From the NCBI GenBank assembly GCA_964425075.1, contig CAYRKM010000001.1:180031-244030 (forward strand): a stretch of DNA of 64,000 nucleotides, in the 5' to 3' direction. Shown here piece after piece: positions 11,004 to 54,586 of the stretch (position 1 is its first letter; each line of letters begins with the position of its first letter). Source of the DNA: an uncultured Gammaproteobacteria bacterium. Lineage in GTDB: Bacteria > Patescibacteriota > Microgenomatia > Levybacterales > GWA1-39-11. The notes under the pieces were generated by a model, which was given only the letters and a program-made list of their open reading frames with translations, made no database searches and was not told where the DNA came from. Both the position numbers and the translations under genes were made by a program.

Positions 11004-11254
11004 TTCACCCTCCTTTATTTTGCGATAATATTTTATTTTAAAGTACAGTAATCTTTTGCTTTCGCAAAAGTCGCTCTCATTAAATCCGTTTGCACGAACG
11101 AAAGGCTTTCACCCTCCTTTATAAGAACTAAACTTAATTTTCAAACTACAAACGTTCAGCACGCTCAAAATTGGAATACAACGAAAAACTAGACCAAACA
11201 TCGTGCACTAATTAATATTTTTAAGTATTATTTAGCATGATTTTCAAAAAATCT

Positions 11255-14722
<3,468 letters not shown>

Positions 14723-15097
14723 GAAATAGCACAGATTTTTAAAAATCATGTGCGATGTTCAATATAAAAATTATAAAATTGCGCTTTCCATGTCCTTCAT
14801 GGAAATGCGCGGCCTAGTTAAATGCTCCAGTCCACTGATGTTGACTGAAGCTGTTGTATCCCAATTTTCAACGTGCTGTACCCTTAAACAGTTTGTTAAA
14901 GGATTATCTCGCCTCATGCATTTAAAGAAGGCCAGCTGTAGCGCTGCGCCTTTTTTAAAGACACGAAGTCTATTAGTTATTAGTTACTAGTAATTAGGAA
15001 TAGTTTTCAAAAACTGACAACTAGTCCTAACAACTACTCCTGAATTGGTGGACCCGGAGATGCGCTGACGCAAGTCCGAATCTCTACCTAATTCCAG

Positions 15098-48191: not shown

Positions 48192-49133
48192 TTATAATAG
48201 TTTCATCTGCCCTTTCCCGTCTTTTTTAAACTTCCCATCTTTCCCAAAAACCTCATCCACCCTTTTGGGCAATGTGTGAAATTCATTTTTCTCAAGGGAA
48301 TGTTTGAATTCTGAAATATCTATATTTGATATATCTGAGTCTGACAACTCAAATACAAAAGGCACATCATCAAGTATTTTTGCAAGCTGAAGAGATACCA
48401 TGCAACTATCATGTCCGTCTATAAGCTTTTGGGCTAAATTCTTATTTTTAGCCGCAATTTTATCTAAATTTTTATATATGTTATTTATTGTTTCATATTC
48501 ATTTATCAAATTGGCTGCGGTTTTGGGTCCAATTCCAGGCACTCCTGGGTAATTATCAGACGCATCCCCCATAAGGGCCTTAAGGTCTACTATCTGGACA
48601 GGATTAATACCGTATTTTTCCCGCACTTTTACCGTATCCATTATGCTAACTTCAGAAATTCCCTTTATGGGCATTAAAACCTTTGTGTCTTTATCCACCA
48701 ACTGCAACATGTCGCGGTCCCCAGTTACGATATAGGTAAAAATTCCATTTTTATTTGCAATTTTTGAAAGAGTTCCTATCACATCATCCGCTTCGTATCC
48801 GTCAACAGCGTAAGTCGGAATATGTGCGTCAAGAAGAATTTGAATAATTCGCTTGTATTGATCGGATAATTCACTTTCCATTTTGGGACGCTGGGCTTGA
48901 TAACCAACATATAACTGCTGACGAAATGTGGGTTTGGGTCTGTCAAAGGCTATTGCAACCCGAGTTGGCTCTAACTGATGCATAACCTTAAGTAACATTG
49001 AGAAAAAACCATAAACTGCCCCTGTAGGGACTCCTTTTGAGGTCTTGAAGAATGGCATGGCGTGATATGCACGATGAACTATAGCGCTACCATCAACGAG
49101 GAGGAATATATCCTTAGAAATGTCATCTTTCAT
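48192..49133 (-). CDS. 5'-3' exonuclease / flap endonuclease (PolI N-terminal-domain-like, ExoIX type)
   Basis: LLVDGSAIVHRAYHA, GYEADDVIGT, VTGDRDMLQL and an H3TH region (LMGDASDNYPGVPGIGPKTA). Confidence 0.8.
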   Translation of the reverse strand: MKDDISKDIFLLVDGSAIVHRAYHAMPFFKTSKGVPTGAVYGFFSMLLKVMHQLEPTRVAIAFDRPKPTFRQQLYVGYQAQRPKMESELSDQYKRIIQILLDAHIPTYAVDGYEADDVIGTLSKIANKNGIFTYIVTGDRDMLQLVDKDTKVLMPIKGISEVSIMDTVKVREKYGINPVQIVDLKALMGDASDNYPGVPGIGPKTAANLINEYETINNIYKNLDKIAAKNKNLAQKLIDGHDSCMVSLQLAKILDDVPFVFELSDSDISNIDISEFKHSLEKNEFHTLPKRVDEVFGKDGKFKKDGKGQMKLL

Positions 49134-49149
49134 GAATTGTATTGTATCA

Positions 49150-49187
49150 GAAAAAGCATTGAGGGGGCCCCGTTTCGGGGCCCCCTC
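49150..49187 (-). terminator. rho-independent terminator (12-bp GC stem plus T-tract) downstream of the thioredoxin-like gene
   Basis: Plus strand 49161-49187 reads GAGGGGGCCCCG-TTT-CGGGGCCCCCTC, a perfect 12-bp stem. On the minus strand it is followed by AATGCTTTTT. It sits between the thioredoxin-like stop (49281) and the FEN start (49133). Confidence 0.6.
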
Positions 49188-49280
49188 AAGTTACCTGAGC
49201 ATAGCTCAAGAACCGCACAGCATAATGCACGACCTTGATACCCGCGGGGATGCGGATAGAACTTGCTCAGAGGCTGAAAA

Positions 49281-49619
49281 TCAGGACGGGTCCGTGGCCA
49301 GGATGGTATCGAACCGCTTCCGCAGGTCGAACTTCGGCCGGAAGCCGACGATCTGCGCGGCGAGCGTGCCCTGCTTGAAAACCAGGAGCATCGGGATCGA
49401 CCGGATCCCAAACCGACTTACGATCCCCGGGTTATCGTCCGTGTTGATCCTGAGGAACTTCATCCGTCCCTCGTACTCCACTGCGAGGTCCTCAAGGATC
49501 GGACTCAAGTTGCGATACGGACCGCACCAGGGAGCCCAGAACACCACCGAGACCGGGATTTCACTCCGGATGACGTCTGCGTCGAACATTGTATCATTTG
49601 TGTCCGGCTGATTTGCCAT
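49281..49619 (-). CDS. thioredoxin-like protein with a CGPY (monothiol) active site, GC-rich
   Basis: VVFWAPWCGPYRNLSPIL...MKFLRINTDDNPGIVSRFGIRSIPMLLVF is a thioredoxin fold. The second active-site Cys is Tyr (codon TAT). AGGAAGG Shine-Dalgarno upstream. GC is far above the window background. Confidence 0.6.
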   Translation of the reverse strand: MANQPDTNDTMFDADVIRSEIPVSVVFWAPWCGPYRNLSPILEDLAVEYEGRMKFLRINTDDNPGIVSRFGIRSIPMLLVFKQGTLAAQIVGFRPKFDLRKRFDTILATDPS

Positions 49620-49678
49620 GCTGCGCTTTCCTTCCTGAAAAGCTCTCCCCTGTACGGGAAGAACTACGAATTGATGAG

Positions 49679-50056
49679 CTACTCAGACACCGTCAGCTTG
49701 TATCCGAGCTGTATATCAACTGGTGTGCCCCCTGCTTTCCAAGAAGCCATCGGCGAAACAGTCGCCGGCTGTCCGTTGACGGTGAAACTGATCGCCTCAC
49801 CATGCTCTGGTTTACAAGGCGAGTCAGCAGGTATCTGCATAACCCACTCACCTGAGGCGTTAGCCTCCGAAGTCGCACACAATTTTCCGCCAATTAAGGC
49901 GTCCACTGTCTGGCCTAACGAAAGACCCTTGCCATATAGCACCATAGGAAGCACCTGATTTTCAATCGAACCCGCCGTGTCGAGCACGAGCGATAGCACC
50001 AGGGCGATAGCGGCAGCGACGAGGCCAAACCTCGTCATCGCTTTACTAAGGATCAT
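49679..50056 (-). CDS. small secreted protein, GC-rich island; shares its start and signal peptide with 50799-51770
   Basis: MILSKAMTRFGLVAAAIALVLSLVLDTAGS signal peptide with a GAGGAG Shine-Dalgarno 8 nt upstream. Two Cys in the mature part. Confidence 0.5.
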   Translation of the reverse strand: MILSKAMTRFGLVAAAIALVLSLVLDTAGSIENQVLPMVLYGKGLSLGQTVDALIGGKLCATSEANASGEWVMQIPADSPCKPEHGEAISFTVNGQPATVSPMASWKAGGTPVDIQLGYKLTVSE

Positions 50057-50798
50057 CTAGATCTCCTCTCAGCCGCAAAGTCCTTCTTCCTTTGACTACG
50101 GCATCTTGAAGAACAAGAAATTATTCTCCCAAAAGCCGCAACCAAAAAAAATTTTAATTTTCAACCAATTTTTTAATGTACTAAAAAAAGGCCTTTAAAA
50201 AAGTGTATACAATTAGCACAAAGGGCCAAATTTTCTTATGGAAATTTTACTACGGGGTTATCTTGCTTGCAATATAGGTTGATTTTTTAAGTCTGTGGGA
50301 CCCCCGCTGGCTGCGGGGGTCCCACTAATGGGTTCCGCGATGGAACCCAAGGCAAACTAAGCTATATTCGAGAGCACGTCCTTGCGGCGGGGACGGACGG
50401 TCTCAAACTAGCTCAGTTAATGGCTGAATCTCTAGTCCGCACGTTGGAATCGAAATTCCACCGTCGAGACCCCGACTGGAGTTTGTACTCCAAACGTCGG
50501 GAGTGGGGCGAGCAACGCCCGGAGCACTCCCTCCAGCCGAGGTCCCGCCCACCACGTGGGTGGGGCGGGTGGCGACCCCTATGTCGCCCGGCGAGAAGTC
50601 AGGCGACGCTTACGCCTGCCAAGAGCTTGCGTATCACGCAGGCCTTCCTTTCCTATAGCCAAACGCGTGTTGATCCGGGTCCTGCCCGGAGGCGCTCGGG
50701 CAGGACCAGTGGTCCCATCAGAGCGTCTTGCGTTGTTGGGAGGCCCGCCCGAAGGCGGGCCCCCCACTTCCACGTCGGTGATCCCGACGCGCTACGGA

Positions 50799-51770
50799 CT
50801 AGTCCTCGCGGCGTCCGTAGAGTTGTCGACCCGCGACCGCAGCGCCAGCCACAGCCGCAAAGCCGAGAAGCAGCCAGAGGCCACCGTTGCCACCATCCGA
50901 ACCGAGGAGACCAGCGTTACCGGACTTCGGCTCATTGGTGTTTCCAGCCCGGATCGCGACCGAGCTGTTGGCCTCAAAACCGTCGGACGCGCTGAACGTC
51001 GTCGGGTCCAGGTTGGACGAGGAGGGACTACTGACCGAGCTGATGCTCGACCTCTGCCTCTCCATATATGCCGCCGGGTTGTACCCAGCCGCTTTGCTCG
51101 TCGTCCAGTTGAGGTTCGTTGCCACGATCACGCCGGCCGGGGTGCCGAGGATCGTGTTGTTCGCGACGATCGCCGAGGGATGAAGCACACCCACGACGAA
51201 AGCCGAAGCGGGGCAGATCATGACGCACTTGCCGCTGGTTCGGGGATTGGCCATCGCGAACCCGTAGTGGGGCCCGAAGTAGCTGGAGCCACCGATCCAG
51301 AAAACGACCTCCACGTCGGTCCCGTTGACCATGCGAAGCTGGTCGAGCCGGGGTGCGGGACTGGCCCTCAGGCCGGTACCCATGTTGAAGTGGACCGGAT
51401 TCACCGTGCCGGCATCCATCACGCGCTCGTTCGTGCTCGCGAAGAACTTGACACCGAACCCATCGTCGGCCGCGTCGAAGGCCATCGGTTGGCTCTTCGG
51501 GCCGATCGCAGCAGTCGAAACGACCGAGGCGAAAGCCTGATGCTCGAGCTGCGGCGTTGTGATGCCAATGCTCGAAGCAGGACCTCCCTTCTCAGCAACC
51601 AGCCCAGTGTTGTCCGTCGTGACGTGGCCGACCGTGAGGCCCTTGCCAGTCGTCATCACCAACTGCTCCTTGGCCGAAGCCGAACCCGCGGTAGCGAGTC
51701 CGAGCGTCAGCACCAGAGCAATGGCAGCAGCCATGAGCCCGAGACGGGTCATCGCCTTTGACAGGATCAC
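50799..51770 (-). CDS. secreted protein with a C-terminal hydrophobic anchor, GC-rich island
   Basis: A likely GTG start at 51770 (GAGGAGGCAGGAG then GTGATCCTG) gives MILSKAMTRLGLMAAAIALVLTLGLATAGSASA, a near-identical cassette to 49679-50056 at both DNA and protein level. The C-terminus GGLWLLLGFAAVAGAAVAGRQLYGRRED is a hydrophobic stretch with a basic tail (sorting-signal-like). The track ORF extends to 51800. Confidence 0.5.
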   Translation of the reverse strand: MILSKAMTRLGLMAAAIALVLTLGLATAGSASAKEQLVMTTGKGLTVGHVTTDNTGLVAEKGGPASSIGITTPQLEHQAFASVVSTAAIGPKSQPMAFDAADDGFGVKFFASTNERVMDAGTVNPVHFNMGTGLRASPAPRLDQLRMVNGTDVEVVFWIGGSSYFGPHYGFAMANPRTSGKCVMICPASAFVVGVLHPSAIVANNTILGTPAGVIVATNLNWTTSKAAGYNPAAYMERQRSSISSVSSPSSSNLDPTTFSASDGFEANSSVAIRAGNTNEPKSGNAGLLGSDGGNGGLWLLLGFAAVAGAAVAGRQLYGRRED

Positions 51771-52426
51771 TCCTGCCTCCTCTCTGAAAGAGAACATCAC
51801 AGCGAAGCGTGTGCTAATCTATAAGCATCTCCTTTCTACGCACCTCAGCGCTGGACCGACAAGTGCCGATCTACTCAGCGCGACGGGGCGGGCTTTCCCA
51901 CGGAGGACTCCGTGAGTGAACCATCTCCGATCCTTTCTGTTAGGCTCTTTCGAACCTCTGATTGATTGCCCTCCTCTGCCAGGGCCTCCTTGTACTGCTC
52001 GAGCGTAGCTCCAAGGAGTCTTTGCAAGAGTTAAGCACTAATTTAGTGGCCATGGCCCTACAGACTGCAAAACGTTGTACGTGTTCGAGCGACCCGAAGG
52101 TCCACGACGCACAACGTTTCCACAAGTAGGAGGAGACGTGTGTCAATCTGTCTGACCATGGCCCTTCGAGAAACAAACTGACTTATTCCCCCAAAAGCCA
52201 CGGCCAAACATAAATAACCCACGACCTTACGGTCGGGGTTTTCTTGAACATTATAAAAAAATTCTAGATTTTCAGCCAATTTTCAATGTACTTAGAACCT
52301 GGTCATATTATTCTGCATGCAATACGCAGTAATTACGCCAAGTTAACTATGATTTGGATTATATTCTCACACTATATTATTTGCAATAATATTTAGTTTT
52401 TAAAAATTGAGGGAGACTGACTATTC

Positions 52427-54586
52427 TTAAGATGGTTTTCGGCCGTACCGTTCTTTTGAAAGTCGAATAACTGCTTCTCTATTGTCATTTTTTAAATTTG
52501 GTAATGGAAGGGTTTTAGCGGGAAATGGCATTGAACTCATTCCATCAATTGAAAGTTTTAGAACTATCTCGTGTTTTCCTAATGACACAAGGTCGTTTTG
52601 AGTATAAATTCCTGCATATTCCTGCTGCAATAACGCAGCATCCCCTGCCCCTGTTACAAATGAAATCAAAGTTCCTGCATTTCCAAAAATGGATTTTTGG
52701 ATGGTTACATCGAGCTGGTCTATGTATTGGTTAGCAAGAGTTATCGCAAGCCTATACTTTCTAGCCTCCGATAAAATCTTTATGAATGAGCTTGTTGCAA
52801 AATTCTGAAACTCATCGACATATAAGAAAAAGTCGCGTCTATCCTCTTCCTTCATAAAGGCTCTGTTCATAGCAGCAAGCTGGATTTGAGTAATAATCAT
52901 AGCTCCAAGAAGTGAGGCATTGTCCTCACCAAGTTTTCCTTGAGAAAGATTTAATAACAAAATTTTTCCTCCATTCATTATTTCCTCCAAATCAATTGTC
53001 GACTTAGGGCTCCCGATAATATTTCGTATCATCTTGGAACTAACAAATTGCCCTACTTTATTCTGAATTGGAGAAATAGCTTCAACTCTGAGTTTATCCG
53101 TCATTTTGTCAAATTCATTCTCCCAGAAATTACGTATCACAGGATCTGTAATTTGAGGAACCACTTTATTTCTGTATTCTTTCTCAGACAAAATACGTAA
53201 AGCATCAATTAATGTCGCATTTGGAATTTCAAGAAGAGAGAAAATTGTATTACGCAAAATATACTCCAAACGTGGTCCCCAACTGTCTGCATAAATTTTA
53301 CTAAAAATTGAAACAATTCCCGAGGCAATTAAATCCTTATGCTGCTTATTTTTAATTTCCAAAACATTCAAAGAAAAAGGCCTTTCGGTATCAAAAGGCT
53401 CAAGATACACCACGTCATTTAGCCGTCTTTTTGGAATATAATCTAAAACTGTTTCACAAAGGTCCCCATGAGGGTCAATTATCCCGATTCCCCTGCCTTT
53501 TCTTATGTCATCAATTGCCATATTTGCAATTAAGGTAGATTTTCCAGCACCTGTTTTTCCCATAATATATACATGCTTTCGTCTGTCCTCGTCTTTTATT
53601 CCAAAAATAGTACTTTGATTTTTAAATTCTGTTGCAGCAAAGAAATTAATATTTTTCTTCTCTTCCTCACTTACATTTATAGCGGTTGGGATATTCTCGG
53701 GTGGCTCTCCAGCAAGGGTTTTACCCCAAGAAATATTCTTAATTCCAGATAAGGCCTTGCCTGTCGGATGCCATAGGGTCGCAAGCTCTTGGGCATTTAA
53801 AATTTGACTGCGTCTCTCAAGAAGTCTTACTTTACGCTCCAACGTTCTTTTATAAAGTCCATTTTTATTCACAATTGGCCGTTTTAACTTAAAACTATTT
53901 CCCTCACCTGAGGCAAAACTTCCAAATGTCCCTGCAACATTTTGCAAAAGCGTTACGGGACTATGTGTGTCTGATGAGGTAATAATCCTAATAACTGCCT
54001 TCCCTCCTTGAAACTGTGTTTTTTGTGTTACAACTGATGCGGAAACGGAAGCTTCCTGTGCTTTTGTTCCATCAGAATTTAATTTTGGTTGGGTTGCAGA
54101 AATTGCATTTGATTGCCAGGGAAATGAAGCTGGCGACACCAAAATCTGAATGCCAATATTTACGTCTTGATCCTGCTTTGCAAGAAATCCAATAAGAGAA
54201 GACAGTGCATCAACTTCTGAAAAATCTTTATATGTTTTTATGGGGTAATAATAATATGAAGAAAGCACTAACTCACCTATTTCTTTGTGTTTTGATTTTG
54301 CAAAAACTTCCATGGGGTCAGTGGTTTCAAGCACTGCTGAGCGTGGATAAGACGAGGCCATAAGACTTGTCACAAATGCTTCGTGTTCCTTTGGAACTGT
54401 TATGTAAAAGTAAACGGTTTGGGAAAGCATGTAAATTTCAAACGAAACCACCCTTGGCTTTTTCAACATTCTTTTAAACAAACCAAAATAATTGGGTAGG
54501 AGAGCTGAAAAAATCTGAGTTGCAGCCTCAGCTGTGGTCTCATCATCTTTTGGCGTTTTGATGTGTAGATAGACAAGATCCTTCAT
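52427..54586 (-). CDS. P-loop ATPase of the TraG/VirD4/HerA-FtsK superfamily (coupling-protein-like), 719 aa
   Basis: Walker A YIMGKTGAGKSTLI, Walker B LYVDEFQNF and ARKYRLAITLANQYIDQL, like the TraG/VirD4 C-terminal R-x-G...Q..QL. There is no N-terminal TM segment; the N-terminal 330 aa is uncharacterised. Confidence 0.45.
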   Translation of the reverse strand: MKDLVYLHIKTPKDDETTAEAATQIFSALLPNYFGLFKRMLKKPRVVSFEIYMLSQTVYFYITVPKEHEAFVTSLMASSYPRSAVLETTDPMEVFAKSKHKEIGELVLSSYYYYPIKTYKDFSEVDALSSLIGFLAKQDQDVNIGIQILVSPASFPWQSNAISATQPKLNSDGTKAQEASVSASVVTQKTQFQGGKAVIRIITSSDTHSPVTLLQNVAGTFGSFASGEGNSFKLKRPIVNKNGLYKRTLERKVRLLERRSQILNAQELATLWHPTGKALSGIKNISWGKTLAGEPPENIPTAINVSEEEKKNINFFAATEFKNQSTIFGIKDEDRRKHVYIMGKTGAGKSTLIANMAIDDIRKGRGIGIIDPHGDLCETVLDYIPKRRLNDVVYLEPFDTERPFSLNVLEIKNKQHKDLIASGIVSIFSKIYADSWGPRLEYILRNTIFSLLEIPNATLIDALRILSEKEYRNKVVPQITDPVIRNFWENEFDKMTDKLRVEAISPIQNKVGQFVSSKMIRNIIGSPKSTIDLEEIMNGGKILLLNLSQGKLGEDNASLLGAMIITQIQLAAMNRAFMKEEDRRDFFLYVDEFQNFATSSFIKILSEARKYRLAITLANQYIDQLDVTIQKSIFGNAGTLISFVTGAGDAALLQQEYAGIYTQNDLVSLGKHEIVLKLSIDGMSSMPFPAKTLPLPNLKNDNREAVIRLSKERYGRKPS

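Follow-up and report, generated by a model that had tools for sequence, protein, structure and literature searches.

A high-GC island of probable Dehalococcoidia origin between the TraG-like and FEN genes of an AT-rich, Patescibacteria-like genome

Patescibacteria are known to carry genomic islands and horizontally transferred genes, and in the survey that describes them most transfers are between Patescibacteria, the Chloroflexota not being among the donor phyla listed (PMC12455944). The locus described here is a high-GC block in a 64-kb stretch of DNA (contig CAYRKM010000001.1 of assembly GCA_964425075.1, positions 180,031 to 244,030), which we call the window. It lies between the gene for a VirD4/TraG-like coupling-protein homolog (TraG for short) and the gene for a 5'-3' exonuclease (FEN), and it holds three real genes, all on the minus strand, for a thioredoxin-fold protein and for two putatively exported proteins of 125 and 323 amino acids (aa). 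We consider it likely that this island was acquired horizontally from a high-GC member of the Dehalococcoidia (Chloroflexota) by a small, AT-rich genome that, judged by its gene content, is of the Candidate Phyla Radiation (CPR)/Patescibacteria type. Like the islands of the survey, it is a compositionally deviant block of a few kilobases that carries accessory genes in a streamlined genome and points to a donor from another phylum. It differs from them in its Dehalococcoidia donor, its cargo of predicted surface proteins, its lack of mobility genes and a site that varies across the clade. Apart from these details, the event is ordinary horizontal gene transfer.

Other described systems share features with the locus. 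Substrates of LPXTG-type sortases have an N-terminal Sec signal and, at the C-terminus, a motif ending in TG or SG followed by a hydrophobic helix and a basic tail. The proteins in question have the same plan, but their motif is PKTGN (PKSGN in the window) rather than LPXTG, and no sortase is seen near the recipient genes. Integron cassettes, too, are small units that follow one another at a single chromosomal site and vary in payload. The cassettes themselves, however, are promoterless and carry a 3' attC site, whereas here there is no IntI or attC, and the repeat lies upstream, is AT-rich and promoter-like and does not form an attC-type imperfect palindrome. The vlp and vsa genes of Mycoplasma combine a shared upstream region and signal peptide with a divergent mature part, and they do so with near-identical 5' DNA in many copies that serve recombination and phase variation. 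The window, in contrast, has two copies that are 67-73% identical and no repeats or invertible elements of that kind.

The foreign character of the block is seen first in its composition. The initial annotation had described a compositionally foreign stretch of roughly 60% GC, and both the GC profile and the GC content at third codon positions (GC3) bear it out. In a chromosome segment of 37% GC overall, GC rises from 0.30-0.43 in the flanks to 0.54-0.67 within the island, which has one AT-rich interruption (GC 0.33) and is the single block of such GC in the whole 64 kb. GC3 is 0.58-0.80 in the island genes and 0.26-0.35 in host genes, and it is unequal within these 3 kb, being 0.58 in the 125-aa gene, 0.78 in the 323-aa gene and 0.80 in the thioredoxin gene. 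The tetranucleotide profile of the block anticorrelates with that of the host (r=-0.29) and matches that of Dehalococcoidia loci (r=0.71). When 3-kb tetranucleotide windows are compared with the rest of the 64 kb, the block gives -0.25, the rRNA region 0.64-0.72 and everything else 0.9-0.98. Some 0.9 kb of GC-rich sequence in the block is noncoding. Open reading frames (ORFs) of 163, 191 and 401 aa on its plus strand were set aside as antisense artefacts of GC-rich DNA.

Abrupt compositional switches would also be expected of an assembly chimera or binning contamination, in which a high-GC fragment has been wrongly joined to an AT-rich contig, and the initial annotation had kept chimerism as an alternative. 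Contigs of three other sequencing runs in the Logan collection decide the matter. L002 (SRR14271372; window 49870-46938) and L099 (SRR14271365; 49338-42839) both cross the FEN/thioredoxin junction at 100% identity, and L001 (SRR14271370; 51273-49677) is 100% identical over the internal GC/AT/GC junctions. In addition, contig L014 (SRR22387838) comes from a different project and a different strain (~89% nucleotide identity), and it unites on a single contig the TraG gene (88.5% DNA and 100% protein identity at its 3' end), the AT-rich element that stands upstream of the 323-aa gene, a GC-rich leader, the gene for a 260-aa paralog of the 323-aa protein and the 3' noncoding region with its conserved core. 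A chimera is unlikely because the same one would have had to arise twice. The host-type AT-rich modules upstream of the island genes, the FEN start only 25 nt past the island terminator and a synonymous divergence in the island's sorting signal equal to that of core genes speak against it too. What can be said for a chimera, besides the switches themselves, is that Logan contig L003 ends at 52215, inside that same AT-rich element, and that no 100%-identical contig was retrieved over 52214-51273. Chimerism is effectively refuted and deserves next to no credence; the block is genuine genomic DNA.

The initial annotation had also proposed transfer from a high-GC organism, and the homologs of the exported proteins give its lineage a name. 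In a scan of one genome per species across 185,579 species, a family of proteins about 190 aa long was found in four genomes, all of them metagenome-assembled genomes (MAGs) of Dehalococcoidia with 67-70% GC. One metagenome homolog carries the Dehalococcoidia label as well, and the donor-type loci, in MAGs and on a Logan contig, have 65-75% GC. Members of the family begin with a signal peptide (MILSKAMTRFGLVAAAAAL...ASA), continue with a ~90-aa domain and a linker rich in Thr and Ala, and end in PKTGNAGLLG...LWLLLGFAAVAGAAVAGRQLYGRREG. The AlphaFold2 (AF2) model of the domain is a seven-stranded beta-sandwich with a mean confidence (pLDDT) of ~90; a Foldseek search against the PDB gave generic immunoglobulin-like (Ig-like) matches alone, with E above 0.05, and a match to an adhesin repeat model stays below threshold. 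The order of the donor cluster is conserved (proteins of 410-420, ~555, ~195 and 120 aa, then a sortase), and the sortase (PF04203) lies 0.9 kb downstream of the family gene, with class F as the closest model at 52.8 bits against a cut-off of 166 bits. Because this synteny with a sortase is conserved in Dehalococcoidia genomes, the family appears to consist of sortase-type surface proteins native to that class.

Both exported proteins of the island are related to this family. The two secreted proteins of the initial annotation stand at 125 and 323 aa, with signal peptides read from the sequence, and the homology search with them leads to the ~190-aa Dehalococcoidia proteins. The 125-aa protein matches the family over its full length (64-70% identity in aa, 68-69% in DNA) and is without the linker and the C-terminal sorting signal, the feature that would mark it as a sortase substrate. 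The 323-aa protein matches ~40 proteins of the family with its two ends, ~40 residues at the N-terminus and ~45 at the C-terminus, and the C-terminal stretch is 90-97% identical. At the DNA level it is 77-79% identical to donor genes over 134-158 nt at the 5' end and 81-83% over 150 nt at the 3' end. It seems, then, that the 125-aa protein and both termini of the 323-aa protein derive from the ~190-aa family, the former having lost its anchor.

In the 323-aa protein, a predicted Sec signal peptide that is conserved in the family (MILSKAMTR, a hydrophobic core and ASA before KE) is followed by an orphan centre of ~240 aa and by a putative sorting signal in which EPKSGN precedes a hydrophobic helix and the residues RRED (EPKSGNAGLLG...LWLLLGFAAVAGAAVAGRQLYGRRED). 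It is the sole ORF in the window with such a motif, helix and basic tail. When the central 236 aa were searched with HMMER against 1.84 billion representative proteins, the sole matches were the protein itself and its paralog in the related strain. Even so, GC3 in the central frame is 0.78-0.81, a bias typical of high-GC genes. With a pLDDT of 31.7, the AF2 model of the whole protein is unusable. The ORF starts at GTG 51770, whereas the NCBI model begins at an upstream ATG and has 332 aa; an exact-protein look-up returned no record for a 333-aa or 323-aa form.

The third gene, 59 nt downstream of the 125-aa gene, had been described as a CGPY thioredoxin-like protein, and this proved correct. 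Its best homologs are 55-59% identical, and the one that is named is a Dehalococcoidia thioredoxin; the closest lies on 67%-GC contigs beside a thioredoxin reductase and is 69% identical in DNA. The protein has the fold and most of the sequence of TrxA, but it differs in its active site, which reads WCGPY with the resolving cysteine lost (all seven aligned homologs have WCGPC), in the replacement of the conserved buried Asp by Val and in a TIGR01068 score of 93.3 bits, just under the cut-off of 96.8 bits. The window copy is also without the neighbouring reductase that its donor-type homolog has. With the cysteine and the Asp replaced, the canonical catalytic cycle is probably lost, and the gene looks like a decaying passenger. 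The exact product is unrecorded in the protein collection, while both neighbouring island proteins of the same NCBI contig are recorded; the source annotation may use another start or call the gene a pseudogene. One JGI metagenome (3300014205, Ga0172380) contains both CPR relatives of the window organism (L049 and L055) and the contig of the closest thioredoxin homolog (L102), which is weak evidence of co-occurrence and the single hint of it.

The age of the island in its present genome can be judged from the related strain. Between the two CPR strains, synonymous divergence (pS) is 0.54 in FEN and 0.45 in TraG, and over the final 46 codons of the genes for the 323-aa and 260-aa proteins it is 0.43, with a nonsynonymous divergence (pN) of 0.067. 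Since the pS of the sorting signal is close to that of the flanking core genes, the cassette has diverged with the core genome; it was ancestral to the two strains and has been inherited vertically. Since its pN is so far below its pS, purifying selection also maintains the sorting signal in the recipient. Over their whole length the 323-aa and 260-aa proteins are 44% identical (BLASTP) with many indels, the passenger region being far more diverged than the termini.

The island is made up of two units, each behind its own copy of an AT-rich element. Unit B carries the 323-aa gene and unit A the 125-aa and thioredoxin genes. As the initial annotation had noticed, the element is present twice, and its homology is wider than stated there. 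The window has exactly two copies (50121-50187 and 52183-52297, 74-81% identical, with sequences including GGCYTTTGGGRGAATAA and GTACATTGAAAATTGG; a 17-mer of the element has a chance expectation of 0.05). The homology extends from ~50093 to 50222 and from ~52150 to 52318, copy B being longer by 42-48 nt. The insertion of 42 nt in element B (52215-52256) is absent from the related strain and from element A. Further copies, for which the initial annotation had suggested a search, were found neither in the window nor in ~0.7 Mb of related loci. In the promoter-like stretches there are more consensus-like sigma-70 sites than expected (8 against 2.2), and element B has a sigma-70-like site, TTGGCT-18-TATAAT, at 52279-52250. 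A 5' hairpin, H1, is formed by GGGGAATAA and TTGTTTCTC in copy B and by GGAGAATAA and TTGTTCTTC in both copy A and L014, its pairs being kept in the three copies with one compensatory change. It is followed by a second stem, the Shine-Dalgarno (SD) sequence GAGAGGAG and, 6 nt downstream, the start codon.

Between element and gene, the leader of unit A is short, and that of unit B is ~400 nt long and has a long-range stem (52148-52163 with 52048-52063). RNAalifold with L014 predicts 81 pairs in this leader, 17 of them kept through two-sided changes, in a poor alignment of two sequences. Sequence is poorly conserved between the strains while the architecture is kept, which for two sequences is weak evidence. 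The proposal that AT-rich promoter modules stand ahead of the GC-rich genes holds as far as their host-type character goes, but element B lies ~400 nt from its gene.

The element itself is probably not part of the imported DNA. In L019, the closest relative by FEN, the sequence TGTACATTGAAAATTGG stands directly after the TraG terminator and corresponds to the left half of the AT-rich element. Because L019 keeps it at the same place, this half appears to be resident intergenic DNA that lies outside the imported block. The AT-rich element, with its promoter-like stretch and its 5' hairpin, is best read as resident intergenic DNA of which a piece has been duplicated. A 15-nt direct repeat, AAGGTCGTG(G/C)(G/A)TTAT, occurs at both block ends (52214-52228 and 49222-49236, matching at 13 of 15 positions), and its left copy lies in the 42-nt insertion of element B, at the edge of which (52215) contig L003 ends. 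Either chance or heterogeneity in the population may account for this. The repeat was considered as an att site and set aside, as its left copy is within an insertion that has no counterpart in the related strain.

A near-identical 5' cassette had been claimed for the two exported-protein genes. Identity proper is limited to the SD sequence, the 6-nt spacer and (A/G)TGATCCT, whereas the DNA that codes for the signal peptide (99 nt) is only 67% identical between the units, or 73% over an 89-nt repeat, and the proteins share 59% of their residues over 49 aa. The two signal-peptide copies are about as distant from each other as from the donor genes, which fits a star tree, and so their resemblance would be due to common descent within the donor protein family.

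The site of the island was compared across 80 loci of relatives, retrieved from metagenomes with FEN as the query. Closer relatives keep the order FtsH-TraG-FEN-GT4, and in more distant ones FtsH is directly beside FEN. The TraG-FEN spacer is empty (52-76 nt) in L020 (936-1011), L041 and L042, and in other relatives it is 1-6.6 kb long, for example in L043 (388-6994) and L049 (482-2949). The cargo of these spacers mostly has a GC of 0.47-0.58 (0.40 in L044 and L045) against 0.36-0.44 in the flanks. It is unrelated to that of the window. Among its genes are those for a class I aldolase, for fatty-acid desaturases and for two tRNAs, and others encode small orphan proteins that are anchored at the N-terminus and in some cases stand in tandem. 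Since the site is empty or differently filled in relatives, it is a clade-wide insertion hotspot. Homologs of VirD4-like type IV coupling proteins are widespread in Patescibacteria chromosomes, usually far from virB4 (PMC12102498), and because such genes are common there, the VirD4-like gene beside the island is no sign of a conjugative element. No integrase, transposase, recombinase or attC-like site was found within 10 kb or more of the island, and the 15-nt repeat, possibly a product of chance, is the only flanking one. A mobility signature, which is a common but non-obligatory feature of islands, is accordingly missing.

One relative has a comparable arrangement of its own at this site. 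Two genes stand in tandem in L019 (278-577 and 664-1314); their small products have N-terminal anchors that resemble each other (IGGKKLGIFLAIVATVAVVLT and IGAKKFGLLLILLTALAILAT), and ATCGGGAGCTTA precedes both genes. This is a locally duplicated pair of surface-protein genes whose sequence is unrelated to that of the window. In L100, a contig of the related strain, a gene of the 23S_rRNA_IVP family (PF05635; 1082-1438) lies between FEN and the GT4 glycosyltransferase; the window does not have it.

One could regard the two units as members of a dedicated mobile cassette system, either integron-like or designed for phase or antigenic variation in the manner of Vlp, in which a shared promoter, ribosome-binding site and signal peptide are joined to exchangeable payloads. 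This was the modular reading of the initial annotation, and it is weakly supported. Two tandem units do have homologous upstream modules and signal peptides with different payloads, the number of cassettes seems to differ between strains (in the related strain it is probably one), the passenger is replaced or hypervariable between strains while its flanks are conserved, and the site is a hotspot across the clade. Against such a system, besides the missing mobility genes and attC-like sites, the element has two copies in the window and none in ~0.7 Mb of related loci, the signal DNA at 67% identity is too diverged for recombination and finds its explanation in common ancestry with the donor genes, and the cargo of the other relatives has neither element nor signal. 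We hold such a system to be very unlikely, and return to a transfer from Dehalococcoidia into resident intergenic DNA.

How the two units came to stand side by side is a separate matter. L014 ends at its 3' side in ...GAGAGGGCCCCCCC, and L100, from the same run, starts at its 5' side with GGGCCCTCTC... (88 nt before FEN); the two look like halves of one terminator hairpin, which suggests that the related strain probably holds unit B alone. Unit A, seemingly absent there, may have been acquired separately, at another time or from another Dehalococcoidia-like donor, rather than by a single acquisition with tandem duplication. The difference in GC3 between the 125-aa gene (0.58) and the 323-aa and thioredoxin genes (0.78-0.80) is consistent with this, as are the equidistant signal regions and the origin of the thioredoxin, which comes from a housekeeping trx-trxB locus that is unlinked to the surface-protein locus in donors. 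On the other hand, both upstream modules are paralogous host-type DNA, so that at least this part was duplicated within the recipient, and the star-tree distances fit either scenario. As a variant of the proposed transfer, separate acquisition is possible, though less likely than not.

In terms of mechanism, a foreign block would have been inserted between the VirD4/TraG-like gene and FEN and would form two expression units, each transcribed from a copy of the resident AT-rich module with its 5' hairpin and the SD sequence. The 323-aa protein of unit B would be exported through Sec with a cleavable signal peptide, and would be retained on the cell surface by its C-terminal PKSGN, hydrophobic helix and RR tail, either covalently through a sortase or merely by the C-terminal helix. 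Its passenger domain would be a fast-diverging orphan exposed to the outside, perhaps with a role in cell-cell contact or adhesion. The 125-aa paralog of unit A, with its signal peptide and Ig-like domain and no anchor, would be released or tethered by its N-terminus, and the thioredoxin with its broken CxxC would be hitch-hiking in the same unit.

Several observations weigh against parts of this account. In the 64-kb window, out of a genome of 835 kb, no sortase was found by tblastn or by a search for the TLxTC catalytic motif, and the recipient motif is PKSGN where the family has PKTGN, so that covalent anchoring in the recipient is no more than a possibility. As for the transfer, the closest donor DNA is just 68-83% identical, so that the true donor is unsampled or the transfer is old; yet the GC3 of two of the genes (0.78-0.80) has hardly ameliorated. 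A Dehalococcoidia origin is also traced for the protein-coding parts alone, which leaves the ~0.9 kb of GC-rich noncoding DNA without a source.

Part of this noncoding DNA is ultra-conserved. The 323-aa gene is followed by a GC-rich hairpin, a variable spacer, a structured element that we call the 3' core, and two more hairpins. The core is 98.4% identical to its counterpart in L014 over 249 aligned nt, with three substitutions and one 2-nt indel, whereas third codon positions of the neighbouring genes are 65-71% identical between the strains (pS 0.43-0.54). Two conserved blocks flank a segment of ~50 nt that is nearly wholly different and has a 1-nt indel; because of this indel and divergence, no ORF spans the core. 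In the predicted fold, the variable segment is the tip of a 16-bp helix that the conserved blocks build. The fold is far better than those of shuffled sequences (minimum free energy z=-5.9), and twelve G-U pairs favour the gene strand. The two hairpins at 50290-50339 are wholly different in sequence between strains, the hairpin form being kept.

The core is a candidate structured RNA, and possibly a new one. Against Rfam 15, the island, core and leader reached at best 11-23 bits, with gathering thresholds of 46-100. Patterns of 23-24 nt from the core gave no matches in IMG/VR (three patterns) or in JGI metagenomes (one pattern), blastn of the 3' region found nothing among PLSDB plasmids and GenBank phages, and nhmmer with the core, leader and AT elements against the 80 CPR loci and the Dehalococcoidia loci returned L014 alone. 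The leader and the 3' core pair with each other no better than shuffled sequence does.

The near-identity of the core could instead be the trace of a recent exchange or gene conversion, the core being donor-derived junk under no functional constraint. Only two sequences exist, so covariation is not assessable, and the lack of a homolog in the databases and loci searched agrees with this. However, the conserved blocks are flanked and interrupted by strongly diverged sequence, so several crossovers within 300 nt would be needed. The adjoining sorting signal shows normal synonymous divergence, and the stability of the fold and the strand preference of its G-U pairs count against this reading as well. 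We find recent exchange doubtful, though it keeps a real share of the probability, and a constrained RNA the better explanation of the core.

The hosts of most CPR/Patescibacteria lineages are unknown, and barely ameliorated surface genes from Dehalococcoidia offer a testable lead to a physical partner. That Dehalococcoidia are this partner, and that the surface proteins serve in attachment, are hypotheses. One could go further and suppose that this CPR-like bacterium lives on Dehalococcoidia and has copied a sortase-type surface protein of its host, selection preserving the sorting signal and the exposed domain diversifying, with the 3' core as an undescribed structured RNA that the module needs and the TraG-FEN site, through its resident promoter and leader, as a landing pad across the clade for the expression of captured genes; we consider this whole picture unlikely. 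A literature search for ties between Patescibacteria and Dehalococcoidia or Chloroflexota hosts, or sortases, found nothing specific. In a more general sense, the locus would exemplify how a streamlined genome can bring acquired genes, at a fixed hotspot, under a promoter that was already there. The features of the locus are collected in Table 1.

Table 1. Features of the island and its flanks, in window coordinates
Feature	Position	Strand	Basis
High-GC island (AT-rich gap at 50057-50289)	49140-52182	-	GC profile, tetranucleotides, GC3
VirD4/TraG-like coupling-protein homolog, left flank, host core gene	52427-54586	-	Pfam, NCBIfam; syntenic with FtsH and FEN in relatives
Element B, promoter-like stretch (GTACATTGAAAATTGG...) and H1 hairpin (52168-52191)	52150-52318	-	Repeats, alignments
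5' leader of the 323-aa gene, 54% GC, no conserved ORF	51785-52167	-	Alignment and RNAalifold with L014
Putative 323-aa exported-protein gene with SD GAGAGGAG (51777-51784)	50799-51784	-	Termini match Dehalococcoidia ~190-aa gene
GC-rich hairpin just after the 323-aa gene, terminator-like, without U-tail	50738-50765	-	Sequence; kept in L014
3' core, ultra-conserved structured noncoding element (candidate)	50340-50645	-	Identity to L014 1975-2264; fold
Two GC-rich hairpins closing the first cassette	50290-50339	-	Alignment with L014
Element A, second module copy, with H1 (50108-50129), short second hairpin and SD (50063-50070)	50093-50222	-	Repeat search, alignment
Putative 125-aa exported-protein gene, signal peptide and Ig-like beta-sandwich	49679-50056	-	Identity to ~190-aa family; GC3 0.58
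Thioredoxin-fold gene, degenerate active site	49281-49619	-	PF00085, E=8e-22
Intrinsic terminator, 14-bp stem and T-run, island end	49159-49189	-	Directly upstream of FEN promoter/start
5'-3' exonuclease (FEN), right flank, host core gene	48192-49133	-	Pfam; 80 syntenic relatives

The rest of the window is rich in housekeeping genes, among them those for 23S and 5S rRNA, tRNAs, FtsH, MurD, Fpg, an aminoacyl-tRNA synthetase of the Trp/Tyr type (PF00579), an ATP-dependent DNA ligase and the VirD4-like ATPase. Beside the 23S rRNA gene there is no 16S gene but tRNA-Ala and then protein genes. An ORF without a Pfam match (12102-12665) runs on the strand opposite to the 23S rRNA gene. The latter (11253-14732, minus strand) is ~3480 nt long where the model has 2925 nt, which implies an insertion of ~550 nt.

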